Shown: one piece after another, positions 14,838-45,776 of the stretch
Layout: each line of letters starts with the position of its first letter
Numbering within the stretch: position 1 is the stretch's first letter
Assembly: GCA_963783385.1 (NCBI GenBank)
Contig: CAWANJ010000002.1
Location: 20,908 to 84,907, forward strand
DNA length: 64,000 bases
Direction of reading: 5' to 3'
Source: an uncultured Gemmatimonadales bacterium
GTDB taxonomy: Bacteria; Gemmatimonadota; Gemmatimonadetes; Palauibacterales; Palauibacteraceae
Program-made: the position numbers and the translations under genes
The notes under the pieces: generated by a model
What the model saw: only the letters and a program-made list of their open reading frames with translations
Database searches by the model: none
What the model was told of the DNA's origin: nothing

Positions 14838-15836
14838 GTGCAGGCGATACGGATCACGCGGCCGGGCGGGCCCGAGGTGCTCCGCCTGGAGGAGGTGCCC
14901 GACCCCGAGCCGGGGCCCGATGACGTCCTCGTGGACGTGCGGGCGGCGGCCCTCAATCGCGCCGACCTGCTCCAGCGCCAGGGACACTATCCGGCGCCGC
15001 CCGGGGCGCCCGCGGACATCCCGGGCCTGGAGATGGCCGGGGTCGTGGCCGCGGTGGGCGGGCGCGTGCGCGGCGTGTCGCCCGGCGACCGGGTCATGGC
15101 CCTCCTGGGTGGAGGCGGCTATGCCGAGCGCGCCGTCGTGCCGGCCGGCATGGTCCTGCCGATACCCCCCGGTCTCTCCTTCGTCGAGGCCGCCGCGCTT
15201 CCCGAGGTGTTCTACACGGCCTACGACGCGCTCTTCCGCCAGGCCGGTCTGGCGATCGGCGAGAGCGTACTCGTCCACGCGGCCGGCGGTGGCGTGGGCA
15301 CCGCCGCCCTGCAGCTGGCCCGGGCCGGTGGGGCGACGCGGATCTTCGGGACCGCCTCGTCCGCCAAGCTCGCCGGGATCGAGCGCGAAGGGCTTCCGCT
15401 GGACGTCCCGATCGACTACAGGGCGGCTTCCTTCGAGGAGGTCGTGCGGGAGCGGACGGAGGGCCGGGGCGTCGACGTGATCCTGGACATGGTGGGCGGC
15501 GACTACCTGGCCGCCGACCTGCGCAGCCTGGCCGAGCTCGGGCGCGTGGTCCTGGTGGGCCTCCTGCGCGGCAGGAGCGCCGAGGCGGACCTGGGCTTGA
15601 TCCTTCGCCGGCGGCTCCGGGTGCTGGGGACGGTGCTGAGGGCCCGCTCCACGGCGGAGAAGCTCACGCTCACGTCCGAGGTCCGGGACCGCCTCCTGCC
15701 GCTGTTCGAGCGGGGGATGCTCCGGCCGGTGGTGGACCGCACCTACCCTCTCGACGAAGCGGACAGGGCGCATCGCGCCATGGATGCCAACCAGAACCTG
15801 GGGAAGATCGTGCTGGAAGTGCAGAGCCGGGCGTGA
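14838..15836 (+). CDS. NADPH:quinone oxidoreductase / zinc-independent MDR-family oxidoreductase
   Basis: From GTG 14838 the sequence is VQAIRITRPGGPEVLRLEEVPDPEPGPDDVLVDVRAAALNRADLLQRQGHYP...AGVVAAVG...VLVHAAGGGVGTAALQLARAGG, the classic quinone oxidoreductase layout. The upstream part of ORF 14619.. is not coding-like. Confidence 0.8.
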   Translation: MQAIRITRPGGPEVLRLEEVPDPEPGPDDVLVDVRAAALNRADLLQRQGHYPAPPGAPADIPGLEMAGVVAAVGGRVRGVSPGDRVMALLGGGGYAERAVVPAGMVLPIPPGLSFVEAAALPEVFYTAYDALFRQAGLAIGESVLVHAAGGGVGTAALQLARAGGATRIFGTASSAKLAGIEREGLPLDVPIDYRAASFEEVVRERTEGRGVDVILDMVGGDYLAADLRSLAELGRVVLVGLLRGRSAEADLGLILRRRLRVLGTVLRARSTAEKLTLTSEVRDRLLPLFERGMLRPVVDRTYPLDEADRAHRAMDANQNLGKIVLEVQSRA

Positions 15837-15860
15837 CCCGTGGCGAGGTGGGTCACGCCC
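15834..15860. terminator. GC-rich hairpin between convergent genes (cgtgaccc-N10-gggtcacg)
   Basis: Perfect 8-bp inverted repeat overlapping the oxidoreductase stop and facing the convergent acyl-CoA dehydrogenase gene. There is no U-tract, which is common in high-GC genomes. Confidence 0.4.
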
Positions 15861-15896
15861 GGCTCCGGAGGGCGCCTGGCACCGCGGCGTAGCGCC

Positions 15897-17831
15897 TCAA
15901 CTCTCGGCGTGCACGGCCTGCTCGCGGGTATCCGACTCGGCCTCGAACTGCGGCTCCAGCGCCTCGGCCTCCTCGCCGAGCCCGACGATGCCCTCCTCCC
16001 ACCAGGCGTAGCGACCCTCCAGGACCCCCTGGGCGACCCGGTACTTCTGGACATCGTCGTTGTCGCCTATGGCCCGGAACAGGGCGTCCACGCGCCGGCG
16101 CGAGTTCCGGCAAAACATGTCGGCCAGCTCGCGGGCCTCGCGCGCGTGCGGGTGCCCGGTGCGCGTCATCATCTGGGCGCGGGCCACGGTAGCCGCCTGC
16201 GCGAACAGCTCGACCCCGATGTCGACCGCCCGGAACAGGATCCCCTGGCGGTACTGCAGCTTGGCCCCGTAGCGCATCATCTTGTGGAACAGCGTGCGGG
16301 CCAGCTTGCGGGACTTGCGGTCGCAGTACCGCAGGTGCGTGGCCAGCTCGCCGAACTGGCCGTAGGCGGGCCACCGACCCCACCCGAGCCACCGCGTCGG
16401 ATACCAGGCCGCGTAGAAGCCCACCACCTTCGGGAGCTGCGCGAGCTTGCCCCCGAGCCCGAGGTCGCCCTCGACCAGCTCTCCGGCCACCTTGAGGTGC
16501 TTGTCCACGGCCTCGCGGGCGATGAACAGGCGGAGGATCTCGCTCGACCCCTCGAAGATCCGGTTGATGCGGAAGTCCCGAAGCATGCGCTCGACCGGGA
16601 TGCCGGGCTCGCCGCGCGAGCGCAGCGAGTCGGCGGTCTCGTAGCCCCGGCCGCCGCGGATCTGGACCGTGTCGTCCAGCAGCTTCCAGCCCATCTCCGT
16701 GTTGAACAGCTTGCTCGCCGCGGCCTCCAGCCGGATGTCGAACGACTTCCGGTCGGTCATGATGCCGGTGATCTCGGCCACCGCCTGCATGGCGAAGCCT
16801 TCGACCGCGATGTCGGCCAGCATGTGCGCCACGGCCTCGTGCTTGCCGATGGGCTGTCCCCACTGGACGCGCTCCGCGCACCACTTCCGGCAGATCTCGA
16901 GGGCGGCCTGGATCGTGCCGATCGCGGCGGCCGGGATGGTGAGGCGTCCCGTGTTGAGGGTGACCAGCGCCAGCTTGAGGCCGCGACCCTCCTTCCACAG
17001 GAGGTTCTCCTTGGGGACGCGCACGTCCTTGAAGAAGATGACGCCGTTCTCGATCGCCTTGAGTCCCATGAAGTCGAGGCGCTGGCTCACCTCGACGCCC
17101 GGCCAGTCCGCCTCGACGATGAAGGCCGAGATCTTGCCGCTCTCGGGGTGGCGGGCCATGACGACGAACAGGTCGGCCACCGTCCCGTTGGTCGTCCACA
17201 GCTTCTCGCCGTTGAGGATGAAGGCTTCACCGTCCTCGGTGCGCACGGCACTGGTCGCGAGGCCGGCTGGGTCGGAGCCCACCTGGGGCTCGGTGAGGGC
17301 GAAGGCCGAGATGGCTCCCCTGGCCAGGCGGGGCAGGTACTTCCGCTTCTGCTCTTCCGTGCCGAAGATCTTGAGAGGCTGCGGCACGCCGATGGACTGG
17401 TGGGCCGACAGGAGGGCGACGAGGCTGCCGTCCTGGCTGCCGACCACCGACATGATGGCCCCGTATTCGCTCTGGTTGAAGCCCAGCCCGCCGTACTCCG
17501 TCGGGATCTTGAGCCCGAACGCGCCCATCTCCCGCAGCCGGTCCACTACGCGCTGCGGGATCTTGCCCTCCCGGTCGATGCGGTCGGAGTCGACCTCCTC
17601 GCGCAGGAAGGTCCGCATGCGGTCCATGTAGTCGCGGGCGCGCTCCCCGATGAAGGCATCGGGCTCGGGGTACGGGTCGATGAGATCGAAGCGGAAGTCG
17701 CCCAGGTAGACGTCGCGCATGAAGGTGGCGCCCTCCCACCGCGACTCCCGGGCGCTCTCGGCGACGCGCCGGGCCTCCTTCTCGCTCACGGGGCCGGAGG
17801 TCCCGGCGCTCTGCGTAGGATTGGTAGACAT
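15897..17831 (-). CDS. acyl-CoA dehydrogenase, VLCAD/ACAD9-like long form with C-terminal extension
   Basis: 644 aa. The ACAD N-terminal, middle and C-terminal domains carry catalytic-region motifs ([29 protein letters not shown]). An additional ~180-aa C-terminal helical domain follows, as in very-long-chain ACADs. Confidence 0.85.
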
Positions 17832-17871
17832 TGCTCGCTCTCGACCTGAGGAGGGTCAGCGGCAGGGTCGC

Positions 17872-17898
17872 GGTCCGTTCCGCGGCGCGGAGCGGACC
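17872..17898. terminator. near-perfect 12-bp stem hairpin downstream of the Na/Ca exchanger gene
   Basis: ggtccgttccgc-ggc-gcggagcggacc with one G-U type mismatch. It lies 94 nt past the minus-strand stop at 17992. Confidence 0.35.
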
Positions 17899-17991
17899 CG
17901 GCGGCCCCCGCATGGCGTTCGAACGTGACAACCCGATGAATATACCGCGAGCGAGTCGGCTTCCAAACCCGTCTCCCTCTCTCCCCTCCCC

Positions 17992-19068
17992 TCAGCCTCG
18001 CCCGTCTCCCCGGCGCAGCGACCGGAAGGTGACCGTGGCGAGCGTCACGGCCGTGAGCGGGATCACGTACACCAGCATCGCCCTGCGGAACGCGGGCAGT
18101 GAGTCGTGGCTCCCGGCGGAGAGGAAGAGGTAGAGGATGTAGGCCACGTAGTAGGCCAGGAAGAGCGCGCCCTCCCAGCGCGCTATGCGGCCTCCAGTGA
18201 AGAAGATGGGCAGGCACGCGAACGCCACGGCGAGCGCCACCGGGAAGTCGAAGTGCAGCGCGTGGGCCGGCACCACCAGTCCTCCGGGCGACAGGGCGGC
18301 GGCCGCCCCGAGCACGATGAGCAGGTTGAAGACGCTGCTCCCGATGACGTTGCCGGTGGCCAGGTCGCGGGCCCCCCGCAGCCCCGCCACCATGGTGGTC
18401 GCCACTTCGGGCAGCGAGGTCCCGGTCGCGACCACCGTGAGGCCGATGAGCGTGTCTCCCACTCCCATCCAGCGAGCCAGGGCCACGGCGCCGGCGACGA
18501 GCCACCCCGCGCCGACCACGAGCATCCCGAGCCCGAGGAGGACCCGCGCCACGTCCACGGGCCATCGGTGCGCCGGCGGAGCCGGGCCGGGCTGGTCGGG
18601 ATCCGGGCTTCCGGTTCCCCGGCGGCCGGAGAGGATCTGGCCGGCCGTGTAAGCGCAGCCACCGCCGAGCAGGAGGAGCCCGTCCGGGCGGCCCAGCCGC
18701 CCGTCGAGGGCCAGAACGTAGGTGAGCGCCGTCACGGCGATCATGATCGGAACGTCGACGCGTACCAGCTGGCGTGAGACGACGAGGGGGGCGAGCACCG
18801 AGGCCAGTCCCAGGATGAGCAGGATGTTGAAGATATTGCTGCCGAGCGCGTTGCCCAGCGCGAGGCCCGGCCGTCCCGCCAGGCTGGCCCTGATGCTCAC
18901 GGCCAGTTCGGGAGCGCTGGTCCCGTAGGCCACCACCGTGAGTCCGATCACCAGGGGGGCGATCCCCAGCCGCTCGGAGAGGTGGGAGGCCCCGCGCACC
19001 AGCAGCTCGGCGCCGATGACGAGGGCCGCGAGGCCGCCGATGGCGGCGAGCACGGCCGCGAGGCTCAC
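17992..19068 (-). CDS. CaCA-family sodium/calcium exchanger membrane protein (YrbG-like)
   Basis: Two internally repeated alpha-repeat regions (GTSAPELAVSI... and GTSLPEVATTMVAGLRG...) and about 10 TM helices. Confidence 0.8.
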   Translation of the reverse strand: MSLAAVLAAIGGLAALVIGAELLVRGASHLSERLGIAPLVIGLTVVAYGTSAPELAVSIRASLAGRPGLALGNALGSNIFNILLILGLASVLAPLVVSRQLVRVDVPIMIAVTALTYVLALDGRLGRPDGLLLLGGGCAYTAGQILSGRRGTGSPDPDQPGPAPPAHRWPVDVARVLLGLGMLVVGAGWLVAGAVALARWMGVGDTLIGLTVVATGTSLPEVATTMVAGLRGARDLATGNVIGSSVFNLLIVLGAAAALSPGGLVVPAHALHFDFPVALAVAFACLPIFFTGGRIARWEGALFLAYYVAYILYLFLSAGSHDSLPAFRRAMLVYVIPLTAVTLATVTFRSLRRGDGRG

Positions 19069-19180
19069 CGGCTATCGCGCTCCGCGATCTCGAGCCGCAG
19101 GGCACCGGCCGGAACGAGCTCGTGGTGCGACAACGTGCGTCCGCATACCCCGCGGGCCTGGGGTTCGCGCGCCTTCCGGC

Positions 19181-20338
19181 TCATCGTGTCCTCCCGAACA
19201 TCTCCGCACGCGTGACGCGGCCGTCGGGACCCACGAGCCAGCCCGCGTCCGGGCCGGCGAAGTCGGCGCTCCAGTAGGGAAGCGTGTCGAGGACGGTCCA
19301 CCGGTGTCCTCCGTCCGTCGAGTATCCCGCCCCGCCCGGACCGACGGCCACCAGCGTGGGAGTGGGGGCCCCGGGGACCCATGTCACGCCGTACACGGGC
19401 CCGGGAATGCCCGGGCTGCCTCCCGCCTCCCAGGTCTCGCCGCCATCCTCGGTGAGGGCGACCCGAACGGAGCTCGCGGCGCCGGGGGGCAACGAGTCCT
19501 CGTCCGCGGCGCTTCCCGTCCCGGGATGAGCCAGGTCGCCTCCGACGACCACGCCGTTCAGCGTGTCGCGGAAGGCCACGGCCATCACGCCCGCCTGGTC
19601 CCCGCTGACCACCGGCGTCGGGCTCCAGGCCCACGAGCGGCCGCCATCCCTCGTCCTGAGGACGCGCGATACGTAGGACGCGCCCGTTCCGATCCACGCC
19701 CGCTGGCCGGGACCGACGGCGACGCACTCCCCGCTGGCCGCGAAGCCTCCCTCCCCGCCACGGGCGCGCGGGACGCGCTCCGCCGGGAGCGGCGTCCAGT
19801 GCTCACCCCCGTCACCGGTGGTCAACACCACGAAGCGGTCCCGCACGGCGTCACTGAACGCCAGGCCCTGTCGGGCGTTCCAGAAGTCGAAGCAATCGTA
19901 GAACCCGGCGGAGTCGGGGTTGGTGAACTGGAGCGACCAGCTCCGGCCGCCGTCCGTCGTGCGGTAGATCCGGGAACGGTCGCCGGCTCCCGCGCTGAGG
20001 AGGAAGGCGGTGTCCGGGCCCGAGGCCCACACGTCCCGGAACTCGAGGCTGTCGGCCCCGGCGACCGTGCCCACGCGCCAGTGCGCTCCTCCGTCCACGG
20101 TCCGCGCCCAGGTGGCGTCGTGACCCGCCACCCACACGACGGAGTCGTTCACGGCGTGGACCGCCTGGAGGAGAGCCGTCGTGCGAGTCGGTTGGGCGGC
20201 GAGCATGGGGTGGAGTCGCAGGGCGGGTTCGGATCGACCTTCGCAGGCGCCCGCGAGCAGCGCCGCCGCGAGCACCGCGATCCCGGCGGGTCTCAGTCGA
20301 AGCGCACGAACTCCAGATCCTCCTCCAGCACCGGCCAT
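19181..20338 (-). CDS. BNR/Ycf48-like beta-propeller lipoprotein
   Basis: Repeated SxDGGxTW-type motifs (TVDGGAHWR, TTDGGRSWS, TGDGGEHWT, TRDGGRSWA, TEDGGETWE, STDGGHRWT). The signal/lipobox is ...AVLAAALLAGAC. The start is uncertain: ORF 19181..20425, and the ATG at 20338 was chosen. Confidence 0.65.
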   Translation of the reverse strand: MAGAGGGSGVRALRLRPAGIAVLAAALLAGACEGRSEPALRLHPMLAAQPTRTTALLQAVHAVNDSVVWVAGHDATWARTVDGGAHWRVGTVAGADSLEFRDVWASGPDTAFLLSAGAGDRSRIYRTTDGGRSWSLQFTNPDSAGFYDCFDFWNARQGLAFSDAVRDRFVVLTTGDGGEHWTPLPAERVPRARGGEGGFAASGECVAVGPGQRAWIGTGASYVSRVLRTRDGGRSWAWSPTPVVSGDQAGVMAVAFRDTLNGVVVGGDLAHPGTGSAADEDSLPPGAASSVRVALTEDGGETWEAGGSPGIPGPVYGVTWVPGAPTPTLVAVGPGGAGYSTDGGHRWTVLDTLPYWSADFAGPDAGWLVGPDGRVTRAEMFGRTR

Positions 20339-20559
20339 CCTCCATCCTCCACGTTGACCGTGACTCGCACCGCGTCCTCCCCCTCGACCTCCATGCGCGC
20401 GTATCGGGTGGTGACGAACCGACAATGCAGCTCGCCCGAGCCCGCTTCCTCCTGCTCGACCACGTGCGCGTCGGCGCGGCGCACCAGCTCGTCCCAGGCC
20501 AGGGCCCGCAGGGAGAAGAGCCGCGCTCGCGCCAGCTCCAGGGCTCGATCTCGATCCAC
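20293..20559 (-). CDS. hypothetical small acidic protein (88 aa)
   Basis: ORF with about 83% GC3 (coding-like): MDRDRALELARARLFSLRALAWDELVRRADAHVVEQEEAGSGELHCRFVTTRYARMEVEGEDAVRVTVNVEDGGWPVLEEDLEFVRFD. Its 3-prime end overlaps the start region of the downstream BNR lipoprotein gene. Confidence 0.4.
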   Translation of the reverse strand: MDRDRALELARARLFSLRALAWDELVRRADAHVVEQEEAGSGELHCRFVTTRYARMEVEGEDAVRVTVNVEDGGWPVLEEDLEFVRFD

Positions 20560-20571
20560 GAGCCGGGTCGC

Positions 20572-20862
20572 TCAGCCCGGGTCGTCCGCTTCGCCCGGGC
20601 GCGACTCCACCATCCCCACTTCCACGAGGAGACGGCGGGCACGGCGAAGGTCCTCGGGACGAACCATGACGCGGGCGGGATTGGGGGAGAGCGTGATGCC
20701 GGCGTAGGCGCCCCCCGCGTCATCCACGGCGATGGCGGCCGGAATGCCGCCGTCACGGAGGTAGCCTCCCGCCAGCTCGGCCTCGTAGCGCTGGCCGTAG
20801 GTGGCCACGACCGCCGCGCAACCCCGCATGTCGCACCCTCCTCCAGGGACGAAGTACACCAT
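20572..20862 (-). CDS. DUF2007-like putative signal-transducing small protein
   Basis: From ATG 20862 the sequence is MVYFVPGGGCDMRGCAAVVATYGQRYEAELAGGYLRDGGIPAAIAVDD..., which resembles the DUF2007 fold. It runs divergent from the 21003.. gene. Confidence 0.5.
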   Translation of the reverse strand: MVYFVPGGGCDMRGCAAVVATYGQRYEAELAGGYLRDGGIPAAIAVDDAGGAYAGITLSPNPARVMVRPEDLRRARRLLVEVGMVESRPGEADDPG

Positions 20863-21002
20863 CAAGTTGCCCTGCCGAGCGGGAACGGGCAACGCTCGAC
20901 GTGTTCGCGACGCCGCCGCACGGCTCCCTTGCCAATCCGCCGCCCGAGGCCGAACGTCAAGATACGAGAGCCCGGCGCATCCACGCCCCGCCCCGGGAGG
21001 TC

Positions 21003-22275
21003 ATGACGCCACCGAGTCCCGACGGGGAACCCGACCAGGACGCACGCGAGGGAGCCGAGCGGGCGCCCTCGCGCCTGCCAGCGCCCGTCGCGCGCTGTCT
21101 GGTGGATCTGGCCGTCGCCCTCAATCGCTTCTCGATGTATCCCCAGGGCCACCCGGCTCTGGCACCGGCGGCGGACGAGGTCCTCGATGCGCTCAGGGTC
21201 CTCCTGCGCGAGCAGGGGTCCATCTCGGTCGAGGGCCGCCGCGAGCGCGTGGTCGTGGGCGAGGCGACCAGCGACCCGGGCACGCCCCACCTGCGGGCGC
21301 TCGCCGCCAGGCTCCACGACCACCACCTGGCCCGCCTGACCTTCCTGGCCGGTCTCGAGGGTGACGAGCTCGCTTCGTTCCTGCGCGCGATGTCCACGGA
21401 GCCGTCGCGGGGCGGGGAGCCGCTCGGCCTGCGATCGGAAGGGGTCCGTTCCTGGCCGCACATCCGCATGGAACCGCAGCGCTACGATCCCCTCCGCCTG
21501 GACGAGGAGGGACGCGACCGGCTCGATGTGGATCCCTCCGGCGGCGCCGCCGGACCGGATCCGACGTCCGCGGCTCGGGCCGGCGTGGCGTCGCCGGGGG
21601 AGGCCCCGCCCGGCGCCGTCACCGCTGCTCCCCTCGGATCGCGCATCGGGGCGGGCGACCTGATGGCCGACGCCCCCGAGGACGTGGCCCGTCGGCTCGA
21701 AGAAGACCTCGGCGCGGAGGATGCGGACCGGATCGTGGCGTTCCAGATCATGCGCCTCGCCGAGCGTCTCTCGGAGGCGCGCGGACAGCAGGCGGAGCTC
21801 CTGCGCCGGCGCATGTCGCGCATGATCCTCCGCCTCCAGCCGGAGACGCTCGCCTACCTCCTCGAGTTCGGCGACGAGGGCCGTCGCGATGAAGACCTCC
21901 TGTTCAGCGCCGCCGGGTCCCTGAGCGTCGAAGCGGCGCTGCGGCTCGTGCGGGCTGCGGCGGCGAGGCACGACGAGGGGATCGAGGCCTGGCTCCTCCG
22001 GGTGGTCAACAAGCTGGCCATGTACGCCGGTCCCCGGGAGCGCCGAGCCGACGGACCCGGCGGGTCCGGGGCGGCCGCGGCGTCGCCGGAGTCCGCCGAG
22101 CGGGTGCACGACCTGGTCGACCGCATCGTGGATGATTGGAAGCTGGAGGATCCGCGCCCGACCCTGTACCGGAGCACGCTCCGCCGCATGGCCCGAACGG
22201 GCCCCTCGGAGGGTCGTCGCCCCACGGCGCAGCTGAGGATCGAGCCCGAGCGCTTCGTTCAGATGGGACTCGAGA
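21003..22275 (+). CDS. regulatory protein N-terminal part, paralogous to the N-domain of the adjacent HD-GYP protein; the frame continues without a stop, and the probable real continuation is the 22276..23232 frame
   Basis: Residues about 10 to 150 (VARCLVDLAVALNRFSMYPQGHPALAPAADEVLDALRVLL...FLAGLEGDELASFLRAMS) align with the N-terminus of the 23229.. gene (LTAVGQALSALRLYAEGHPARAEAVDRVRRTLQAVL...VAPGVTEDELARFLSEA). Third-position GC stays high until about 22255. After that this frame becomes Arg/Gly/Pro junk, although no stop occurs until 24395. Confidence 0.6.
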
Positions 22276-23232
22276 ATGGACGAGCCCGCCCGCGACGTCG
22301 ACGGAGCCGTGGTGACGCTGCTCGAGGAGCGTCGGGTCCCGGAGCTGATCGAGATGGCCGAGGCCGTCCCGGAGCCGAACCGGGCCGCCGAAGCCCTGTG
22401 GAATCGGCTGGCCGTGCCCGAGACGGTCGAGGGCCTGCTCCACGAGCCCAACCCGGACTTCGAGCTCCTGCGCCGCGTCGTCGAGCGCGCGGGCGCCGCG
22501 GTCGCCGGCCCGCTCCTCGACGCCCTGTCGGACTCCAATGCCGGATCGCGGGCCTACTGGCACAACGTGTTCGGCCTCCTGCTGCAGATCGGAGAGCCGG
22601 TGGCCGATCTCGTGCCCGAGCGCCTCGAGGACGAGCACTGGTTCGTCCGCCGGAATCTACTGGCACTCCTGTACGAGCTTCCCCGCCGCCCCGAGGGCTT
22701 CACGGCGCTGCCCTACCTGGAGGAGTCCGAGCCGCGGGTGCGCGCCGAGGCGCTGCGCCTGGCCCTCGAGGAGCCGGCCGGGAGGGAGCCGGCCCTGGCC
22801 GCCGGGCTCCTGGACGACAACGAACGTGTGGTGGGCCTGGCGCTGTCGGCCGCCACCGAGGAGCTCCCCGGGTCCCTGGAGCCGCTGGTGATCCGCCGCG
22901 CCTCGGACGGGTCGCTGGCCCCGGCCCTGCGCAGCCGGGCGGTTCGCATCCTGGCCGAGCGACCGTCGCGGTCGGCCCTCCGCGCGCTGGTGGACATCGT
23001 CTGGGCCCGCCGCTGGCTCTTCTGGCGACGCCTGGCCGAGCCGTCCGGGCCCGTCCTCGCCGCGCTGGAGGCGCTGAGCCGGCGGTGGGCAGACGCCGCG
23101 GAGGCCCGTCCGGCCCTGGAGGCGGCTCGCTCCAGCGACGACGAGCGCGTTCGGGAGGCCGTGGCGGCCTCGCCGGCCCGTGGCCACGGCGACGGCAACG
23201 GACGCCGACCGCGAGGGGAGGGCGACGGGTGA
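22276..23232 (+). CDS. HEAT/PBS-lyase-like repeat protein, likely the C-terminal part of the 21003.. gene after a frame change
   Basis: About 90% GC3 over 318 codons. Helical repeats of the LLxDxxxxVRxxAxxAL type (LLDALSDSNAGSRAYWHNV..., WFVRRNLLALLYEL, EPRVRAEALRLALEE, LLDDNERVVGLALSAATEE). The frame opens after a TGA at 22234. The stop TGA overlaps the GTG start of the HD-GYP gene. Confidence 0.6.
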   Translation: MDEPARDVDGAVVTLLEERRVPELIEMAEAVPEPNRAAEALWNRLAVPETVEGLLHEPNPDFELLRRVVERAGAAVAGPLLDALSDSNAGSRAYWHNVFGLLLQIGEPVADLVPERLEDEHWFVRRNLLALLYELPRRPEGFTALPYLEESEPRVRAEALRLALEEPAGREPALAAGLLDDNERVVGLALSAATEELPGSLEPLVIRRASDGSLAPALRSRAVRILAERPSRSALRALVDIVWARRWLFWRRLAEPSGPVLAALEALSRRWADAAEARPALEAARSSDDERVREAVAASPARGHGDGNGRRPRGEGDG

Positions 23233-24395
23233 ACGAGACTCCGGCCATCGAGTTTCTAACCGCCGTGGGCCAGGCTCTGTCCGCACTGCGTCTCTATGCG
23301 GAGGGGCACCCCGCGCGGGCCGAGGCGGTGGACCGCGTGCGCCGCACGCTGCAGGCGGTCTTGAACGAGGGAGCCGGACAGACGGCACGCTTCACCTTCC
23401 TCGGCGACGACGTGGTGGTGGGCGACCGGCGCCTGCGTGGGCTCGGGGGCTGGTCCTGGGGCCGGCAGCTCGCCGCGACCGGCATCGAGCGCCTGGAGGT
23501 GGCGCCGGGCGTCACCGAGGACGAGCTGGCGCGGTTCCTGTCCGAGGCCGTCCGGCGGCTGGACGCGGCCGGCCGCCGGGGCGCCCCGGGCGGTGGCCGC
23601 GAGGCCGGGTCGCGTATCGCGGACCCGCGAGAGCCCGGGATGAGCCTGGAGCACCTGCGGTTCGGGTGGGTGGCTGAGGCTGGCGAGACGGAGTGGAACG
23701 GCGAGCTGGACGGGACGCTCCGGGAGATCGGCGGGTTGTTCGAGGGTGCCAGGGACGAGGGCTCGGTCGAGGCGACGGTGGCGGCCGCCGTGGTGGAGGC
23801 CGTGGGCGCGGCGGTCCAGCAGAGCCGCAATCTCCTGCGGCTCCTCGTTCCGCTCAGGGACATCGACCAGTACAGCACCATCCACTCGATGAACGTGTCC
23901 GTGCTCTCCATCGGGCTGGCGGAACGGGTCGGCTACGGCCGGAAGGACGTGCGCTCGGTCGGCAAGGCCGCGCTCCTGCACGACGTGGGCAAGAGCCTCG
24001 TACCGGACGAGATCCTCAAGAAGCCGGGCACGCTCACCCCCGAGGAGTGGACCATCGTGAAGCGCCATCCCGTCAATGGCGCCCGAATCCTGTTCCGCTC
24101 GCGTGATGGCCTCGGCGTGGCGGCCGTGGTGGCGTACGAGCACCACATGACCTGGGATGGAGGCGGCTATCCCGACCGTCGCTTCGCCCGGCCGGTCCAC
24201 CCGGCCACACAGCTGGTGCAGGTGTGCAATGTGTACGATGCCCTGCGCACCGAGCGCCCCTTCCGGGGTCCGTGGAGCGAGGATCGCATCGTGGCGCACC
24301 TGCGGGCCGGGGCGGGAGAGGCGTTCAGCCCCGAGATGGTCGAGCTGTTCCTGGGCATGCTGGAGGCCTTCCAGGAGGACGCGCCGAAGGATTGA
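23229..24395 (+). CDS. HD-GYP domain cyclic-di-GMP phosphodiesterase with N-terminal sensor-like domain
   Basis: The GTG start overlaps the upstream stop (GTGA). The C-terminal HD-GYP domain reads IHSMNVSVLSIGLAERVG...ALLHDVGKSLVPDEILKKPGTLTPEEWTIVKRHPVNGARIL...AYEHHMTWDGGGYPD. Confidence 0.85.
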   Translation: MNETPAIEFLTAVGQALSALRLYAEGHPARAEAVDRVRRTLQAVLNEGAGQTARFTFLGDDVVVGDRRLRGLGGWSWGRQLAATGIERLEVAPGVTEDELARFLSEAVRRLDAAGRRGAPGGGREAGSRIADPREPGMSLEHLRFGWVAEAGETEWNGELDGTLREIGGLFEGARDEGSVEATVAAAVVEAVGAAVQQSRNLLRLLVPLRDIDQYSTIHSMNVSVLSIGLAERVGYGRKDVRSVGKAALLHDVGKSLVPDEILKKPGTLTPEEWTIVKRHPVNGARILFRSRDGLGVAAVVAYEHHMTWDGGGYPDRRFARPVHPATQLVQVCNVYDALRTERPFRGPWSEDRIVAHLRAGAGEAFSPEMVELFLGMLEAFQEDAPKD

Positions 24396-24626
24396 GCCGG
24401 ACCCTCCTCCACGGCACCCCGTGGGCGGAGTCCTATGCGGGAATCGGCAAACTCCCGACAGACACCGAATTTCGTGCGCCTTATTCTGCGGCACGTCCCG
24501 CGATGGCGCACCTCGCGGCCCTCCTGTCCCACCACCGGCACGAGCGTCTCGGCGAACGCGAAGGTGTGGCTCGCCGGCCTGTCGATCGCCGCGGGCGGCT
24601 CGCGGCAGGTCCCCAATCCGGACGGC

Positions 24627-24653
24627 GGACGGGCTCCACACGGGAGCCCGTCC
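24627..24653. terminator. perfect 11-bp stem hairpin (ggacgggctcc-acac-ggagcccgtcc) between the convergent HD-GYP and M20 peptidase genes
   Basis: Perfect inverted repeat in the 286-bp convergent intergenic region. It is a bidirectional terminator candidate. Confidence 0.5.
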
Positions 24654-24681
24654 CGGGGGCCCGGGAGACGGGCTGGCTGTC

Positions 24682-25830
24682 TCAGCGGCAGTACGCCTCG
24701 GCGGTGTGGGCCAGGATGTCGGCGAGCCGGTGGACGGACTCCAGCTCGACCCACTCCTCCGCCGCGTGCGCTCCGGCGCCGGCCGGCCCCAGGATCACGG
24801 TGTCGATGCCGGCGGCCGCCAGCAGCGCGGCATCCATCCAGTAGCTCTCCCCCACATCCCCGGACGGACCTCCCAGCCGGGCCGCCATCTCACGGCGCAG
24901 GGTGCCGGCGAGTTCCGATCGGGGATCGGCTTCGAAGGCCACTCGCCACAGCAGCGGTTCGACGGTGGCGTCGAACTCGGGATCCTCGGCCCGGATCGAG
25001 TCCACGAGTCCGCGGATCTCCGCCAGGACGGCCTCGGGCGTCTCGCCCGGCAGGGTCCGTCGCTCGATCTCCAGCCGGCAGCGAGCCGCGTAGGTGCTGG
25101 GACCCGTCCCGCCCTGGAGCCTGGCCGCGTGCAGGGAGGGAGGGCCCAGCAGGGGATGGCCGGAACGGGAGCGGAGCTCGCGCTCCAGGCCCTCGAGCCG
25201 GCCCAGGATCCGGCCCATGCGGAGGTTGGAGTCCACCCCCTCGTCGAAGCGGCTGCCGTGCGCCGCGCGTCCCCGGGTCTCGACCGCGATCCAGGCGAAG
25301 CCCTTGTGCGCCACGCACAGGCGCAGGTCCGTCGGCTCGGTGACCACGGCTCCGTCCGGGCGGACGGCGGACAGGAGCTCGTGCATTCCGAAGCTCTCGT
25401 GCTCTTCGTCCGCCACGAAGCCGAGGTGCAGGTCTCCGGATAGGTCGGAGGAAGCCTCGACGAGCGAGCGGGCGGCGGCCAGGCAGGCCGCCAGACCGCT
25501 CTTCATGTCGTAGGCCCCGCGGCCGTAGAGTCGTCCCTCACGGATCGCGGCGCCGAACGGGTCCTCCATGCCCTCCACCCCGACCGTGTCCAGGTGCGCG
25601 TACAGCAGGAGGGAGCGTCCCCCGCCTCGGCCTCTCAGGGTGCCCAGCACGCTCGGCCGACCGGGGCGCTTCTGGAGGAGAGTCACCTCGAGGTCGAGGG
25701 CCTGCAGGCACCTGGCCACGCGACGCGCCAGCTCCGCCTCCCCCGGTCCCCCGAACGCGGGATTGATCGAGTCGATGGCCACGAGGTCCCGGAGGACTCG
25801 CAGGGTCCAGGACCGGTCGACCGGGCTCAT
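24682..25830 (-). CDS. M20-family metallopeptidase (ArgE/DapE-like deacylase)
   Basis: Motifs LLLYAHLDTVGV, GRGAYDMKSGLAACLAA, LGFVADEEHESFG and a dimerization-domain insert. Confidence 0.8.
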   Translation of the reverse strand: MSPVDRSWTLRVLRDLVAIDSINPAFGGPGEAELARRVARCLQALDLEVTLLQKRPGRPSVLGTLRGRGGGRSLLLYAHLDTVGVEGMEDPFGAAIREGRLYGRGAYDMKSGLAACLAAARSLVEASSDLSGDLHLGFVADEEHESFGMHELLSAVRPDGAVVTEPTDLRLCVAHKGFAWIAVETRGRAAHGSRFDEGVDSNLRMGRILGRLEGLERELRSRSGHPLLGPPSLHAARLQGGTGPSTYAARCRLEIERRTLPGETPEAVLAEIRGLVDSIRAEDPEFDATVEPLLWRVAFEADPRSELAGTLRREMAARLGGPSGDVGESYWMDAALLAAAGIDTVILGPAGAGAHAAEEWVELESVHRLADILAHTAEAYCR

Positions 25831-25946
25831 GCTCCACGTCGCGGGTGACGGGCCGCGCCTCGCAGGAGGTCATACGTACGTATCATATCCTGGACCCTCT
25901 GCTATCTAGAGGGTTACGGCATGTGTCGACGACCGTATGCCGCCGC

Positions 25947-26306
25947 TCAGATCGTGGCCAGCGCGCGCTTGCCGTCCTCGCTGAGCAGCACCCAGAACGT
26001 GTACACGGCCAGCGCTGTGCCGAGCGGGACGTGGAGGATCTCGAAGGCGGCCACGATCAGGAGGACGACCCGTGCCCAGGGCTTCCCCCGGAGGAGGCCG
26101 AAGCCCCCCACGATCCCGGGAAGCGACACGACGACCAGGTAGCCGGCGCCAATGGTGGCCACGGCCGAGGTGATGGCCATGGCGCGCAGGTCTCCCGACA
26201 GGAGGCCGCCCCCCAGGATGGTGACGAACAGGAACAGGGCCGCCAGGAGGCCGAAGGCCCCGAGTACGATCTGCAGCACGGCCACGGCGGTGATGTGGTT
26301 CTTCAT
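25947..26306 (-). CDS. hypothetical small membrane protein (3 to 4 TM helices)
   Basis: MKNHITAVAVLQIVLGAFGLLAALFLFVTILGGGLLSG...VVSLPGIVGGFGLLRGKPWARVVLLIVAAFEILHVPLGTALAVYTFWVLL. An RBS ggagg sits 7 nt upstream. Confidence 0.5.
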   Translation of the reverse strand: MKNHITAVAVLQIVLGAFGLLAALFLFVTILGGGLLSGDLRAMAITSAVATIGAGYLVVVSLPGIVGGFGLLRGKPWARVVLLIVAAFEILHVPLGTALAVYTFWVLLSEDGKRALATI

Positions 26307-26320
26307 GGCTCCTCCAGGCT

Positions 26321-26458
26321 TCAGGTGCCTTCCTTCCTGAGACGCTCCAGCTCGGAGCGGATGCGGCGGTCATCGGGCCGCAGGGAGGCAGCCTGCTCCA
26401 GGGCGGCGATGGCCGCCGATCGGTCGCCCCCGGCCTCCGGGATTCGCTTCGCGTCCAC
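26321..26458 (-). CDS. possible small ORF (about 45 aa, GTG start) ending 15 nt upstream of the membrane-protein gene
   Basis: GC3 is about 87%. The sequence VDAKRIPEAGGDRSAAIAALEQAASLRPDDRRIRSELERLRKEGT is TPR-like and helical. No ATG start is present. It could be a remnant or a leader peptide. Confidence 0.3.
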   Translation of the reverse strand: MDAKRIPEAGGDRSAAIAALEQAASLRPDDRRIRSELERLRKEGT

Positions 26459-26684
26459 GAGCCGGTCGGCCAGCGCTCCTGGTTCAGGTAGTCGACCCTA
26501 CGCAGCATGAAGCGGGCTTTGCGCTTGGTCGCCCTGTCGTCGGACTTGAAGTTCCACTCCGAGAATGGCTGACCTTCCTTGCCGACGTGGAAGAACTGGC
26601 AGCGCACACGGAAAGCGTCCGGCCGGTTCGGCGGCGACGGCGAGTTCGGACCATGGAGGACCGGGGCGCGGACCCGCCCCGGTC

Positions 26685-27308
26685 CTATCCGGGGCCGCCC
26701 AGCCCGCCCAGACCGCTGTCCGCCGCCTCGAACGTCCCGCGGGTTCGGACGTCCCGACTGCCCGCGGCGCCCGGCACTCGCCAGGTCACGTCGAAGCGTC
26801 CGCAGATCGCCCCGCCGTCGACCTCGTCCAGGCTGAGGGTGCCCTGACGCGGGACGAAGTCGCGTCCGTTCAGGGCGTCCGCGTCGAACATGTACAGCTC
26901 GCCGGTGACCGTCGAACGCTTCGCCGCGCCCGCCGCGGCCCCGCTCCCGGACCCCCCGGCCGACACGGTGAAGTCGCCGGCCGCCGGGAGTGCGCCCAGT
27001 CCGTCGATGGAGAAGCGCATCTCCCACCGTCCGGTCTGGGGTTCGGTGAGCGTCAGGCGCAGGGCCTTCGCCCCGCCCGGCTGGTCCACGAGCGCGAAGA
27101 ACGCCTCTCCGGCCAGTCCCGCCGTCAGGCTGCCCGTCGCCTCTCCCGAGACCCGGCCGCTGGTCGCCGCCGCTTCGCCGCACGTGGGCGGCCGTCCCCG
27201 CGCCTCCCCGGACGCCGACGGCGGGAGCGAGCCGGCCCGTGGCAGCGGTCCCAGGGCCGCGGTGCCGAGCACCAGGATCGAGGCAAAGCTCCGCGCGACT
27301 GGCTTCAT
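26685..27308 (-). CDS. hypothetical secreted protein
   Basis: Signal peptide MKPVARSFASILVLGTAALGPLP followed by a Gly/Ala/Ser-rich beta-rich sequence. It has coding-like GC3, and I recognise no family. Confidence 0.45.
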   Translation of the reverse strand: MKPVARSFASILVLGTAALGPLPRAGSLPPSASGEARGRPPTCGEAAATSGRVSGEATGSLTAGLAGEAFFALVDQPGGAKALRLTLTEPQTGRWEMRFSIDGLGALPAAGDFTVSAGGSGSGAAAGAAKRSTVTGELYMFDADALNGRDFVPRQGTLSLDEVDGGAICGRFDVTWRVPGAAGSRDVRTRGTFEAADSGLGGLGGPG

Positions 27309-27593
27309 GGACGATGGCGACGGGGTCATGGGTGGACTGCAGGGTTCACTCTAGACTCCGAAAGCTCGCCGTCCCGGGGTCGCCCGTCAAAGGGCCGCTC
27401 CGAACTCGGTCGTGAATCAGAGCGTGTGGCCTGAATCCACGGTGATGACGTCGAAGAACCCCTGGATCCACAGGTTGTGGCTGGCGTGCAGGAACATCCC
27501 GGTCCACACGCTCCCCCAGCGCAGCCGCAGCCAGGCCATGGGAAAGGATATGCCGACCCGACCTCGCCGGGCTCGCCGGGGTAGAGGAGCGAG

Positions 27594-28280
27594 ATGAACA
27601 GTCCGCACCTGTACCGGTCGGCCGGCCGGGGAGGCTCCTCTCCCACCGTGGCCGAGGAAGTGGCGGCGTGGCTGACGCACGGCGCGGGCTTCGTGGCCAG
27701 CGTGGTGGCCGGCGGTGTGCTCGTGTGGGCCGCCGCGAGCCACGCGGGCGGCCTCCGGCCCGCGGGCATCGCCGCCGTGGCGGTGTACGCGGTCAGCCTC
27801 AGCCTCCTGTACGCGGCATCGACGGCCTACCACGCCACGCGTCACCCGCGCTGGAAGCCGCTCCTTCGGCTGGCCGATCACTGCGCCATCTTCCTCCTCA
27901 TCGCGGGGACGTACACCCCCGTGGCGGTGCTCGGCCTCGGCTTCGAACGCTCGCGCTGGCTGCTCGCCCTGGTGTGGGGCATGGCGGTCGTCGGGATCCT
28001 GGTCAAGCTGCGCTGGATGGGCCGCTTTCCGATTCTGACGCCCCTCTTCTACCTGGCCATGGGCTGGACCGGCGTGTTCGCGCTGCGGCCCTTGCTGGCG
28101 ACGGTCGGGACCGGGGTGGTGGAGTGGCTGGTGGCGGGCGGTGTGGTCTACACGCTGGGCGTGGCGTTCTACGCCTGGAAGAGACTGCCCTTCAACCACA
28201 CCGTGTGGCACCTGTTCGTCCTGGGCGGGAGCGTGTGCCACTTCGTGGCTATCGCGCTGGTGGTGGGCGCGCGCGGCTGA
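27594..28280 (+). CDS. hemolysin III / PAQR-family channel protein (YqfA-like)
   Basis: 7-TM protein with the conserved AYHATRHPRWKPLLRLADHCAIFLLIAGTYTP and HLFVLGGSVCHFVAIAL motifs. An RBS gaggag precedes it. Confidence 0.85.
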   Translation: MNSPHLYRSAGRGGSSPTVAEEVAAWLTHGAGFVASVVAGGVLVWAAASHAGGLRPAGIAAVAVYAVSLSLLYAASTAYHATRHPRWKPLLRLADHCAIFLLIAGTYTPVAVLGLGFERSRWLLALVWGMAVVGILVKLRWMGRFPILTPLFYLAMGWTGVFALRPLLATVGTGVVEWLVAGGVVYTLGVAFYAWKRLPFNHTVWHLFVLGGSVCHFVAIALVVGARG

Positions 28281-28370
28281 CGCGGCGGCCGCGAGGTACG
28301 GGCGGCCGGACGAAGGGAGCCACGGGGAGCCGGTCGTGCCCCGAGCCCGGGAGAACGGCGAGCGCGCTCC

Positions 28371-29294
28371 TCAGTATCGGGCCAGGTCTTCCCCTATGAC
28401 GATCCGTCCACTGAAGCCCGCCGCCCGGATGATCCCCTCCGACTCGACCTTCACGCGCGCCCGATAGATCACGTGGGTGAGGATGAGGAGCTTCGGCTGC
28501 GCCTTCGCGACCAGGCGGCCCAGCTCCCGATCGGAGGTGTGGAAGGCTTTCATGTAACGGGGCCAGTCGCTTCCGCCAGGTCGCTCCTCCGGGGCGAGTC
28601 TCGAGGCCGCGTACACCTCGTGGACCAGGACGTCGACCCCGGTGGCCTCCCGCTCCACTTCCGGGCTGGGACGGGTGTCCCCAGAGATCACCACCGAGCG
28701 GTCCGGCGTATCGATCCGGTAGCCCAGGGCCACCTTCCAGCTTCCGTGCTCGACCCGGAAGGCGGTGACCCGGACACCGCCACTGTCGTACACGACCCCG
28801 CCGCGCGTCTCGTGCACGTCCACCTTCCAGCCGCCCGGAGCCTCGTGCTCCAGTCCCTCCGTCCGGATCCGGATGTCCTCCGCGTAGGCCTCCGCCAGGT
28901 GGTCGGTCATGGCCTGCAGCCCCGGGGGGCCGTAGGCCTGGAGAGCGTGGCGGCGGCCCATGACCCAGGACGTGAAGATGAGGTCCGGGTAACCGAGCGT
29001 GTGGTCCGTGTGGAGGTGGGTGATGAACAGCGCCGTCGGACCAGCGATCGGGAGGTGGGCGGCCGCCATCTGGCGCTCCACGCCCGGACCGGCGTCGAAC
29101 AGGAAGGTACGGTCTCCGACGACGACCGCGGTGGCCGGTCCCTGGTGATGGGGATCCGGGCGGGGGAATCCCGTCCCGAGCAGGACGACCAGGGTGCTGT
29201 CGGGGGTCGGGCCGCCGTCGACGGACGGGGCGGCCGCGGGGGACGCCGCCAAAGTGGCCAGGTACACGATCAGCAGCACGGCGAGCGATCCCAT
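28371..29294 (-). CDS. secreted MBL-fold metallo-hydrolase
   Basis: From ATG 29294 (RBS ggagg): signal peptide MGSLAVLLIVYLATLAASPAAA, then the HxHxDH motif (FITHLHTDHTLGY) and downstream metal ligands (VHE, VEHG). Confidence 0.8.
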   Translation of the reverse strand: MGSLAVLLIVYLATLAASPAAAPSVDGGPTPDSTLVVLLGTGFPRPDPHHQGPATAVVVGDRTFLFDAGPGVERQMAAAHLPIAGPTALFITHLHTDHTLGYPDLIFTSWVMGRRHALQAYGPPGLQAMTDHLAEAYAEDIRIRTEGLEHEAPGGWKVDVHETRGGVVYDSGGVRVTAFRVEHGSWKVALGYRIDTPDRSVVISGDTRPSPEVEREATGVDVLVHEVYAASRLAPEERPGGSDWPRYMKAFHTSDRELGRLVAKAQPKLLILTHVIYRARVKVESEGIIRAAGFSGRIVIGEDLARY

Positions 29295-38693: not shown

Positions 38694-38725
38694 GACCCGG
38701 TGTCCTGGCCCGCTCGGGTTATGGC
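38447..38725 (+). repeat. copy 1 of a duplicated segment (3-prime end of the S9 peptidase gene plus about 30 bp downstream); the partner is 45495..45772
   Basis: About 90% nucleotide identity to 45495..45772 in the same orientation (GGGAAGCTCCTCCTGGCCTACGGTACCACGGACGACAACGTGCCGCCCTACAAC...). Confidence 0.7.
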
Positions 38726-38810
38726 CCTCTCAGCCGGGAGGGGAGCCGGTGCCTATCTGCTGGGCGAAAAGACGTAGGTGTGCTTCCCATCGCTCAAATG
38801 GAACGCTCCA

Positions 38811-39326
38811 TCACTGACTCGGCCCTCCAGCCATCAACTCGTCGCCGGCAGCGTCGACGAGAACGAGCGTGGTGCCATCCCAATCGTATTGTCCTGTCGA
38901 GCTGACGGCTCGCTGCTGGACCGAGCCTGAGGGATCCTGGAACTGGTTCGTGACGCTCATGGAGAACGCGCCCGTTTGACACTTCGACAGTTGATACGTG
39001 CTGCCATCGGGCAGCGTCACGAGGCCGGATGTGTCGACATGAGCGCCGTTCGGGACGTGATGAACGCATGCCTTCGGCATCCATCCGTCCGGCGTAGCCA
39101 CGCTGTCCTGTGACACGGCCTGGTCGAGCACGAGGGAACCCGCGACGAGTGTCGCGGTGCTGCCGGACGAATCCGTTGTCGTGCAGCATGGCAAACGACG
39201 AGCACCGTCGGCCGTCGTCAGCTCATACCGACCTGAAATGTCCTGGCCAGCGGCTGCTGGATTCGTCACCCCGCAGGCGCTCATTGCGAGTACTGACGTA
39301 ACGACAGCTACGACGGTTGTCTTCAT
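38811..39326 (-). CDS. hypothetical lipoprotein carrying a conserved Cys-motif domain shared with the upstream lipoprotein
   Basis: Lipobox MKTTVVAVVTSVLAMSAC. The domain ...ACVHHVPNGAHVDTSGLVTLPDGSTYQLSKC is shared with the 39476..40738 product. It lies in the lower-GC island. Confidence 0.5.
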   Translation of the reverse strand: MKTTVVAVVTSVLAMSACGVTNPAAAGQDISGRYELTTADGARRLPCCTTTDSSGSTATLVAGSLVLDQAVSQDSVATPDGWMPKACVHHVPNGAHVDTSGLVTLPDGSTYQLSKCQTGAFSMSVTNQFQDPSGSVQQRAVSSTGQYDWDGTTLVLVDAAGDELMAGGPSQ

Positions 39327-39475
39327 AGTATATCCTCCCAGTTGGGATCCTCGCCCGCTGAAGCCACGAGCACTCCGTTTCGTTTCCCAGTCGCGCGAGA
39401 TCTAGCGTGTCTCAACTTCCCGGCCGCCGTCCGTGTTCATGCGTAAGCAGTCCTCCGACGAGTCACACAGCTCGG

Positions 39476-40738
39476 CTACTGGCTTGAGCCGCTTCCGGAG
39501 GGCGCGAGCGGGCAACCCGAGCCGATGCAGACTTTGACGTGGTGGCTGGCGGTCGCCGTGTCGGGCGGAGAAACCGCAGTAAGATCCAGTGTGAAGCTCG
39601 TATCGTTAGCGTACACATAGCGTCTGTACGTGCTATCCGAGCCCACGCTCGAGCACGTCCCTCCGTCCGGGCAGAAGTCCCATGCATATGAGTAGCTCCC
39701 CGACCCGCCGCTAGGATTGGCCGACCACGTGTAGTTGCCTGCGGAGCTGATATAGCCGGTACCATTGATCCCAACGCTGAACGAGGGAACGTTGTGGTAG
39801 AGGTTCACCGTCGTGGCGGTATGGGTCGCGCTGAAATCACAGGATGGCGAAAGACCCGATGTTACATGGTTGTACCAGGTCGGAGAAAGACCGGTACCAT
39901 TGAGATCCTTGGTCGCAACGCCTGTGTAGAAGACCCCATTCTGCGGAAACTGACTGCATTGCGTCAGGCTGTAGACCTCGACGCCCCCCCCGCTTGCCCA
40001 GGTGTAGTTGTCGTTATCGTCCGCGGTCCAATCGGAGCGCGATCCTGTGATGACATCCACGAGAACGATGGTCCATGTGCAGGTCCCGTTCACGCAAGAG
40101 CTGGCCTGGACGCTACCATGGATGGAGTCCCCGGTAGTCGCCATGATGGTATCGCCGTGGAGACAGTCCGAGCCCGAGTTGCAGCGCCAAGAGGCCCCGC
40201 TCCAGAAGGAGCCGCCGTAGTCTCCGTTATACCCGTATTGGAGAACCGGTTGGATGATGTAGGAGCTGTTCTCAAGGCCTGGGAAGGTGTAGTAGACTTC
40301 CTGGCCGGAGTATGAGCCGCTGGGCTTTGCCGGCACCTTCCAGTCTGCGGTCAGCGTACCGAACGTATCGGACGAGAGCGTCGCCGAGTCCCACTCAAGC
40401 CAGCCGTTGAGGGACGGAGAGGCCACTGAATGCGAAGACCCCGCCCATTGCGGTAGGTTCGGGTGCGCTGGATGTGTACACGCGGGAAGTTGGAACGTCG
40501 AACCATCCGAACGTGTGACGCGCCCGTGAAGCCCGACGTGCGCGCCATTGGGAATCTGATGCACGCACGAACGGTCATACAATCCGGCGGGCGTGGCGAC
40601 ATAAGCGCCCTGACTTTCCATGGCTCCAAGGGACGCCCTAAGCCCCTTCGGTCCGGTGGGGTTCTTCTGATCCGAGCAGGCAACGGCCCCAAGCATTACG
40701 GCGATAACCAGTAGAGCTATGGGAGTTCGACCCTTCAT
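39476..40738 (-). CDS. hypothetical Cys/Gly/Ser/Trp-rich secreted lipoprotein (about 420 aa)
   Basis: From ATG 40738 the lipobox is MKGRTPIALLVIAVMLGAVAC. The N-terminal domain SCVHQIPNGAHVGLHGRVTRSDGSTFQLPAC is paralogous to the 38811 gene product. The large C-terminal region is rich in C, G, S, T, N, W and Y, suggesting a beta-sandwich carbohydrate-binding-like fold. About 60% GC. Confidence 0.55.
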   Translation of the reverse strand: MKGRTPIALLVIAVMLGAVACSDQKNPTGPKGLRASLGAMESQGAYVATPAGLYDRSCVHQIPNGAHVGLHGRVTRSDGSTFQLPACTHPAHPNLPQWAGSSHSVASPSLNGWLEWDSATLSSDTFGTLTADWKVPAKPSGSYSGQEVYYTFPGLENSSYIIQPVLQYGYNGDYGGSFWSGASWRCNSGSDCLHGDTIMATTGDSIHGSVQASSCVNGTCTWTIVLVDVITGSRSDWTADDNDNYTWASGGGVEVYSLTQCSQFPQNGVFYTGVATKDLNGTGLSPTWYNHVTSGLSPSCDFSATHTATTVNLYHNVPSFSVGINGTGYISSAGNYTWSANPSGGSGSYSYAWDFCPDGGTCSSVGSDSTYRRYVYANDTSFTLDLTAVSPPDTATASHHVKVCIGSGCPLAPSGSGSSQ

Positions 40739-45740: not shown

Positions 45741-45776
45741 GATAGGATGTTCTGGTCTGCACCCGCTACGGAGCGT

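Follow-up and report, generated by a model that had tools for sequence, protein, structure and literature searches.

Organization and reading frames of the locus

The window analyzed here is a 64-kb stretch of contig CAWANJ010000002.1 from an uncultured Gemmatimonadales bacterium, with a G+C content of ~73%. This analysis concerns a pair of overlapping genes on its forward strand: gene 1, which encodes a large partner protein with HEAT-like repeats, and gene 2, which encodes an HD-GYP phosphodiesterase. The coordinates of both genes fall within one 1164-codon open reading frame (ORF), 20901..24395 (+), whose frame (frame A) is stop-free from 20694 to 24393. Gene 1 begins with the ATG at 21003, 2 nt downstream of a weak Shine-Dalgarno-like GGGAGG read from the sequence (20995..21000, +). 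Its 5′ part, codons 1-424 (21003..22274, +), lies in frame A and ends with ...FVQMGLE. The 3′ part, codons 425-742 (22276..23232, +), lies in frame B, encodes the HEAT-like segment and ends with the TGA at 23230..23232. Both parts match P0001, a homolog of 742 amino acids (aa), the second over its residues 425-742. Between them, the window has one A too many (22275..22275, +; one of the As at 22275-22276), an insertion of 1 nt that no close relative has. Gene 2 (23229..24395, +; 388 aa) starts with a GTG that overlaps the upstream TGA as GTGA, a stop/start overlap of 4 nt at 23229..23232. A Shine-Dalgarno motif, GAGGGGAGGG (GGAGG; 23213..23222, +), was read from the sequence 7 nt 5′ of this GTG.

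The initial annotation of this DNA, which was made from the letters alone, held that the 1164-codon ORF is open throughout but coding only in its outer parts. Codon-position G+C confirmed the succession of frames A, B, and A. The values at the first, second, and third codon positions (GC1/2/3) in frame A were 0.81/0.54/0.88 over 21003..22274 and 0.76/0.49/0.90 over 23229..24392, both coding-like. Over the middle segment, 22275..23228 (+), frame A gave 0.92/0.84/0.52 and is not coding, whereas frame B over 22276..23229 gave a coding-like 0.84/0.52/0.92. The alternative frame thus has the GC3 of about 90% first reported for it, while the GC3 of the false frame measured ~52% rather than the reported ~45%. 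Translated in frame A, the middle segment is 24.5% R, 21.4% G, 16.4% A, and 15.1% P (77% for the four residues together), and this Arg/Gly/Ala/Pro-rich sequence is carried by no homolog. A sliding G+C profile showed the frame change between 22200 and 22260 and the return near 23200; the shift had been placed at 22240 to 22260, and its actual position, 22275, is slightly downstream. The frame is indeed long and open, but a stop-free run of this length is ordinary here: stops occur at 0.0037 per codon in the -1 frame relative to the HEAT-coding part, giving P ~0.3 for 318 open codons.

Together, the indel and the 73% G+C produce the 1164-codon ORF as a by-product. It arises because frame A, after the insertion, is by chance stop-free and because the HD-GYP gene lies in this frame too. 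That the ORF instead encodes a genuine multidomain protein with an Arg/Gly-rich linker would agree with the frame being open from 20901 to 24395. However, the middle third has noncoding G+C values while another frame is coding-like, neither the length nor the linker is seen in any homolog, and the gene 1 stop overlaps the HD-GYP start in relatives. Based on the codon-position G+C, the homolog lengths, and the near-identical assemblies described below, a real 1164-aa protein was rejected as vanishingly improbable.

The real genes are also overlain by long ORFs that run antisense or in other frames and reach 558 aa, for example 20862..22538 (-). These antisense "shadow" ORFs even form conserved-family clusters across loci; they are an artifact of high G+C and could mislead an ORF-based reading.

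One extra nucleotide splits a conserved 742-codon gene

The frame switch is caused by the extra A at 22275, which splits a conserved gene of 742 codons. The junction in the window reads GAGAATGG, and three near-identical assemblies have GAGATGG there. In the DNA alignment, CTCGAGAATGGAC of the window stands opposite CTCGAG-ATGGAC in L001, L002, and L003. The comparison DNA came from three independent assemblies carrying P0001 (Logan SRR8557214, JGI 3300031256, and Logan SRR9710701), which are 99.5-99.8% identical to window positions 15003..29254. The A at 22275 is the sole 1-nt indel in the 14.2 kb aligned with L001, and deleting it restores the 742-codon gene from its parts of 424 and 318 codons.

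Homologs were searched for using the frame-A and frame-B translations concatenated into one query. All 14 proteins found with it are 666-757 aa long, with a query coverage of 92-100%. Among them, P0001 is an almost exact match to the window protein, with residues 1-424 ~99% identical to the frame-A part, and it crosses the junction as FVQMGLEMDEPARD (in short, ...MGLEMDEP...). The family alignment is unbroken at the junction in 14/14 members. In a profile search run exhaustively over 1.84 billion representatives, 1006 proteins, each representing a cluster, matched at E ≤ 1e-30. Among these 1006, the top 150 are 528-872 aa long, mostly 660-760 aa, and none is ~1164 aa; 139 of the best 150 match nearly the whole profile in a single stretch. 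A look-up in the protein collection found no record of the 1130-aa product that would start at the ATG at 21003. Fusion of the first segment to the HEAT-like segment across a single-base shift, as the initial annotation had suggested, is therefore supported both by the near-identical assemblies lacking one A and by the single 742-aa protein. The homologs are single fused proteins of ~700 aa; those listed in the two database searches range over ~530-870 aa (mostly 666-774 aa) and can be aligned from end to end. We found neither a separate gene ending near 22270 nor a conserved 1164-aa protein.

The same data bear on two other ways of reading the junction. The locus could contain three genes, namely one for an N-domain/helical protein with its end near 22270, one for a HEAT protein that begins at the ATG at 22276, and one for the HD-GYP enzyme. 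This ATG does head the frame-B ORF, but no frame-A stop is found anywhere near 22270 and the corresponding Met is internal to the continuous protein of all homologs (...MGLEMDE...). Three separate genes were rejected on these two grounds as highly improbable. Alternatively, programmed +1 ribosomal frameshifting at GAG-AAU could unite both parts in vivo, since they are intact and in phase once one base is skipped, and a frame-B stop at 22234 lies just 5′ of the site. At +1 frameshift sites such as prfB, the slip requires re-pairing of the tRNA; by that standard CUC-GAG-A-AUG is not slippery, as re-pairing of tRNA-Glu on AGA is impossible. Furthermore, the assemblies that are 99.5-99.8% identical do not have the base, and the ORF of the relatives is continuous, so there is no conserved shift site. 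With neither a slippery site nor the shift conserved in any relative, programmed frameshifting was rejected and has next to no chance of being correct.

Origin of the extra A

The insertion is probably an assembly or sequencing error, which is the likeliest of the possible origins. The whole window was scanned by GC3 frame plot for same-strand frame switches without a stop in the outgoing frame. In addition to the 22275 site, six such switches were found, all in two minus-strand genes. One is a prolyl oligopeptidase gene (51394..53548, -) that is spread over three frames (ORFs 51953..53548, 51394..52551, and 51750..52397), with consecutive Pfam segments split among different ORFs in the order Peptidase_S9_N 1-262 and 306-412, then Peptidase_S9 1-62 and 85-210. 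Judged by this arrangement, the prolyl oligopeptidase gene alone, with frame breaks near 51.85, 52.18, and 52.6 kb, would imply at least three indels. The other is a tricorn-like protease gene (~58668..62268, -), which is split over several frames according to Pfam: PD40 repeats are in ORFs 60353..60994 and 60862..62268, and Tricorn_C1, PDZ_Tricorn, and Peptidase_S41 are in 58668..60221. Four stop-less switches of this gene fall between 60.2 and 61.8 kb. Metagenome pattern scans and protein look-up gave no reference DNA for the frameshifted genes near 52 kb. With ~7 frame breaks in 64 kb, the assembly is most simply indel-prone, which makes error the likeliest origin.

A real mutation in this population is the second likeliest origin, although an unlikely one. 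It would turn the partner gene into a pseudogene or create a 1130-aa chimera, in which 318 junk residues rich in Arg, Gly, and Pro would separate the N-domain and helical region from the complete HD-GYP protein. The window carries genuine single-nucleotide polymorphisms relative to its closest relatives (34 substitutions in 14 kb), suggesting a distinct strain or population. There is also no other 1-nt indel in the compared 14 kb, and the A-to-AA context is not a long homopolymer. On the other hand, the further frame-broken genes of the same 64 kb point to assembly quality, all other assemblies and species examined have an intact gene, and the collection holds no record of the chimeric product. 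The frame switch itself is ordinary, most likely an assembly artifact, and not the biology of interest. It matters solely as a quality flag, since the indels in this assembly yield false long ORFs and chimeric gene calls.

Conservation of the gene pair

Conservation was scanned using one genome per species. Relatives of the gene 1 product were found in 241 species genomes, nearly all of them Gemmatimonadota. A script detected an HD-GYP gene with the same N-domain directly downstream and on the same strand in 69/75 evaluable loci, and inspection of tblastn matches showed that most of the remaining loci also have a downstream HD-GYP gene. The stop/start overlap is exactly 4 nt in 56/70 loci, and some overlap is present in 66/70. 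This conserved overlap upholds the earlier proposal of one translationally coupled, uncharacterized unit of cyclic diguanosine monophosphate (c-di-GMP) signaling. No further neighbor is kept in more than 35/78 loci; there is just lineage-level synteny with housekeeping genes.

Eight loci (L015, L019, L053, L061, L065, L068, L079, and L083), all from Gemmatimonadota genomes, contain two modules in tandem in the order big1-HD1-big2-HD2, at ~4.7-11.8 kb in each locus. By sequence identity, the tandem copies of the large protein fall into two orthologous groups, and those of the HD-GYP protein fall into the same two. The matching groups in both partners indicate that the unit was duplicated whole and that the partners co-diverged.

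The architecture was also seen outside the phylum. In Geomonas oryzae, the N-domain, with TYPQGH, is found in a 716-aa protein whose annotation is HEAT repeat protein; a look-up of this protein (P0016) found no record, and a tblastn search of plasmids with it gave no match and was uninformative. A metagenomic locus (L084, 3376..7418) encodes a 589-aa protein distantly related to the large protein. Its gene is overlapped by an HD_5 gene, which encodes 483 aa with degenerate motifs (HDIGE and GFP) and is followed by a PilZ-domain gene. Both N-domains of L084 are without the YxxxHP motif. The pair is thus a conserved two-gene unit across Gemmatimonadota, with an architecture that reaches beyond the phylum.

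Gene 2 encodes a predicted HD-GYP phosphodiesterase

The downstream gene had been described as an HD-GYP enzyme, and this was borne out by a complete domain that matched Pfam HD_5 (E 1e-18) and PmGH (4mcw, E 1e-29). The AlphaFold2 model of the protein, with a predicted local distance difference test score (pLDDT) of 86.7, has the HD-GYP fold. The catalytic domain, delimited by invariant alignment columns and the alignment with 4mcw, comprises residues ~200-385 (23826..24383, +). It contains H219, H251-D252, K255, KPG at 265-267, H280, H305-H306, GYP at 313-315, and R343-P-F-R346. The roles of the motifs and the definitions of KPG and RxY[K/R] follow Galperin & Chou (bioRxiv 10.1101/2021.11.05.467447). 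Across 71 homologs, the metal ligands H219, H251-D252, H280, H305-H306, and D337 are invariant and align with those of PmGH, and G313-Y314-P315 (HHMTWDGGGYP) is invariant as well. Concerning the c-di-GMP-contact motifs, K265-P266-G267 is present, R343 is invariant and R346 is conserved in at least 90% of these homologs, with Phe in place of Tyr in RxY[K/R].

The position of the third-metal Glu of PmGH, E185, is occupied by Y215 (DQYSTIH compared to DPETQNH in 4mcw), which is invariant among the same homologs. This replacement of the third-metal Glu/Asp ruled out the trinuclear PmGH-like subclass and places the enzyme in the binuclear class. HD-GYP enzymes without the third-metal Glu belong to this class and generally stop at pGpG (Galperin & Chou, bioRxiv 10.1101/2021.11.05.467447). 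From the conserved residues, we infer that the gene 2 product is an active binuclear-class c-di-GMP phosphodiesterase yielding pGpG.

Gene 2 belongs to the same family (PS51832, HD_5) as PmGH (4MCW), PA4781 (4R8Z), Bd1817 (3TM8), and DvhD (9RBZ). It differs from PmGH in having the invariant Tyr and is binuclear like PA4781. Unlike the described HD-GYP enzymes, it has a dedicated partner gene upstream, and its N-domain is none of the described HD-GYP partners (REC, GAF, DUF3391, DUF3369, or PAS).

A shared N-terminal domain

The N-terminal ~140 residues of the gene 1 product had been called a paralog of the N-terminal domain of the HD-GYP enzyme, and both sequence and profile comparisons supported this. 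By BLASTP, the two N-termini are 30% identical over 114 aa (E 5e-6). Profiles of the N-domain, built from 83 large-protein and 79 HD-GYP sequences from related loci, matched each other in a profile-profile comparison (hhalign) with 97.7% probability over 122 columns (E 1.7e-12). No homology between the full-length gene 1 and gene 2 profiles was found beyond the N-domain. These comparisons indicate that the two N-domains are truly homologous. Copy 1 consists of residues 24-165 of the large protein (21072..21497, +) and has an invariant Y46-P-x-x-H50-P loop between helix 1 and helix 2. Copy 2 consists of residues 1 to ~118 of the HD-GYP protein (23229..23582, +) and has an L-Y23-x-x-G-H27-P loop. 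These are the only two copies in the 64-kb window. The Tyr and His of the Y-x-x-x-H-P loop are invariant in the joint alignment; YPxxHP is present in 83/83 large proteins and YxxxHP in 74/79 HD-GYP proteins, and Y23 and H27 of gene 2 are invariant in the 71 homologs.

The N-domain was modeled with a pLDDT of 94.1 and a predicted template modeling score of 0.88, as a pair of long helices, with the conserved loop between them, followed by beta-beta-alpha-beta-alpha. Neither N-domain matched a family in Pfam or NCBIfam, and the domain matched no solved structure in the PDB; the best Foldseek result, the PelD GAF domain, was not significant (E 0.13, template modeling score 0.20). Given this confident but structurally unmatched model, the N-domain appears to be an undescribed domain. 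The duplication on both proteins therefore stands; the "sensor" role that the initial annotation gave to the domain is putative.

Two candidate identities were rejected. An identity as GAF, PAS, or REC found neither a Pfam or NCBIfam match nor a significant fold match. In DUF3391 (PF11871), four beta-strands precede two long helices (Galperin & Chou, bioRxiv 10.1101/2021.11.05.467447). DUF3391 gave no Pfam match at E ≤ 0.1, its order of secondary structure is different, and 3tm8 (Bd1817) was not retrieved with the N-domain model. Thus, the Bd1817 family (DUF3391-HD-GYP) has beta4 and then alpha2, whereas the N-domain here has two long helices first and then beta-beta-alpha-beta-alpha.

The helical and HEAT-like parts of the gene 1 product

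The repaired gene 1 product is a cytoplasmic protein of 742 aa with four parts in order: the ~115-aa alpha/beta N-domain (residues ~24-140), a low-complexity linker (~165-225), a helical region (~230-430), and C-terminal HEAT-like repeats. The helical middle region of ~200 aa is conserved and has no family match. The frame-B protein matched Pfam HEAT_2 (PF13646) with E 1e-4 and 23 bits, and the curated cut-off of this family is 27.7 bits. HEAT_2 was matched by 10/14 family members at E ≤ 0.01 (best, 7e-10), and the family profile matched alphaRep designs in the PDB at E 3e-4. The HEAT-like helical repeats first noticed in frame B are thus recognized in most of these family members, while the window protein's own match is below the threshold.

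Compared to bacterial HEAT-like proteins (HEAT_2/PBS-lyase type and alphaRep 3LTJ/3LTM), the C-terminal ~300 residues of the gene 1 product carry repeats of the D-x-x-V-R-x-x-A type, which HEAT_2 recognizes in the 10/14 members. Unlike these proteins, it adds an N-domain paralogous to that of an enzyme and the ~200-aa family-less helical region, and its gene is fixed in an operon with an HD-GYP gene. Gene 1 represents an uncharacterized family, whose members are labeled just hypothetical or HEAT repeat protein in the databases.

Proposed function of the pair

Translational coupling would cause the proteins of gene 1 and gene 2 to be made in fixed proportion, and the two products may act as a cognate pair. 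Such a cognate complex is suggested by the translational coupling, the strict adjacency, the duplication as a unit, and the paralogous domain on both proteins. In one possible mechanism, the homologous N-domains would pair with each other or sense a common signal by way of the Tyr/His loop. The HEAT arm would be a docking or regulatory scaffold and would thereby control or position the enzyme. This mechanism is tentative, and we consider its chances to be somewhat short of even. A slightly more speculative proposal is that the pair forms an undescribed c-di-GMP module comprising a new domain on the HD-GYP enzyme and the HEAT scaffold. According to the model, the new domain would be an alpha-hairpin plus a small alpha/beta unit with the invariant YPxxHP loop. 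The two copies could form a heterodimer or bind a common ligand or metal, and the scaffold would gate or localize hydrolysis. The module would be of ancient origin, would have duplicated as a whole, and would be near-universal in Gemmatimonadota, with outliers in other phyla such as Geomonas.

Signaling enzymes that work with a partner protein include RpfG, with GGDEF proteins, and trigger phosphodiesterases such as PdeR. The pair described here has in common with them the idea of a c-di-GMP phosphodiesterase within a specific protein complex. It differs from these cases in that the putative partner shares a paralogous domain with the enzyme and is translationally coupled to it. A literature search on HD-GYP/HEAT pairing or on HD-GYP proteins in Gemmatimonadetes found nothing relevant.

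Overall, we assign a probability of roughly 80% to the explanation that an insertion-split gene and a conserved two-gene c-di-GMP unit account for this locus. Several points weigh against it. Adjacency and co-divergence are equally expected from shared ancestry within one phylum. The N-domain is without a family or structural match that would hint at what it binds, and the putative HEAT assignment of the window's own protein is under the Pfam cut-off (23 compared to 27.7 bits). Concerning the insertion, the local error rate is not visibly high (one 1-nt indel in the 14 kb compared).

For research on c-di-GMP, the conserved pair offers a usable lead and a testable hypothesis on how HD-GYP enzymes are regulated or positioned in a poorly studied phylum. 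Most HD-GYP proteins carry unrecognized N-terminal regions; one such region is defined here and is also found on a coupled HEAT-repeat partner.

Other features of the window

Over ~9 kb at ~38700..48000, the G+C content falls to 60-70% (compared to ~73% outside this stretch), and strong GC3 periodicity is nearly absent. The stretch may represent an acquired island or contain atypical genes. It is not a ribosomal RNA operon, since an Rfam scan of the whole 64-kb window gave no matches. At 27529..27556, just 5′ of an HlyIII-family gene, the window has a block of ~22 nt that is absent or rearranged in the near-identical L001 and L002.

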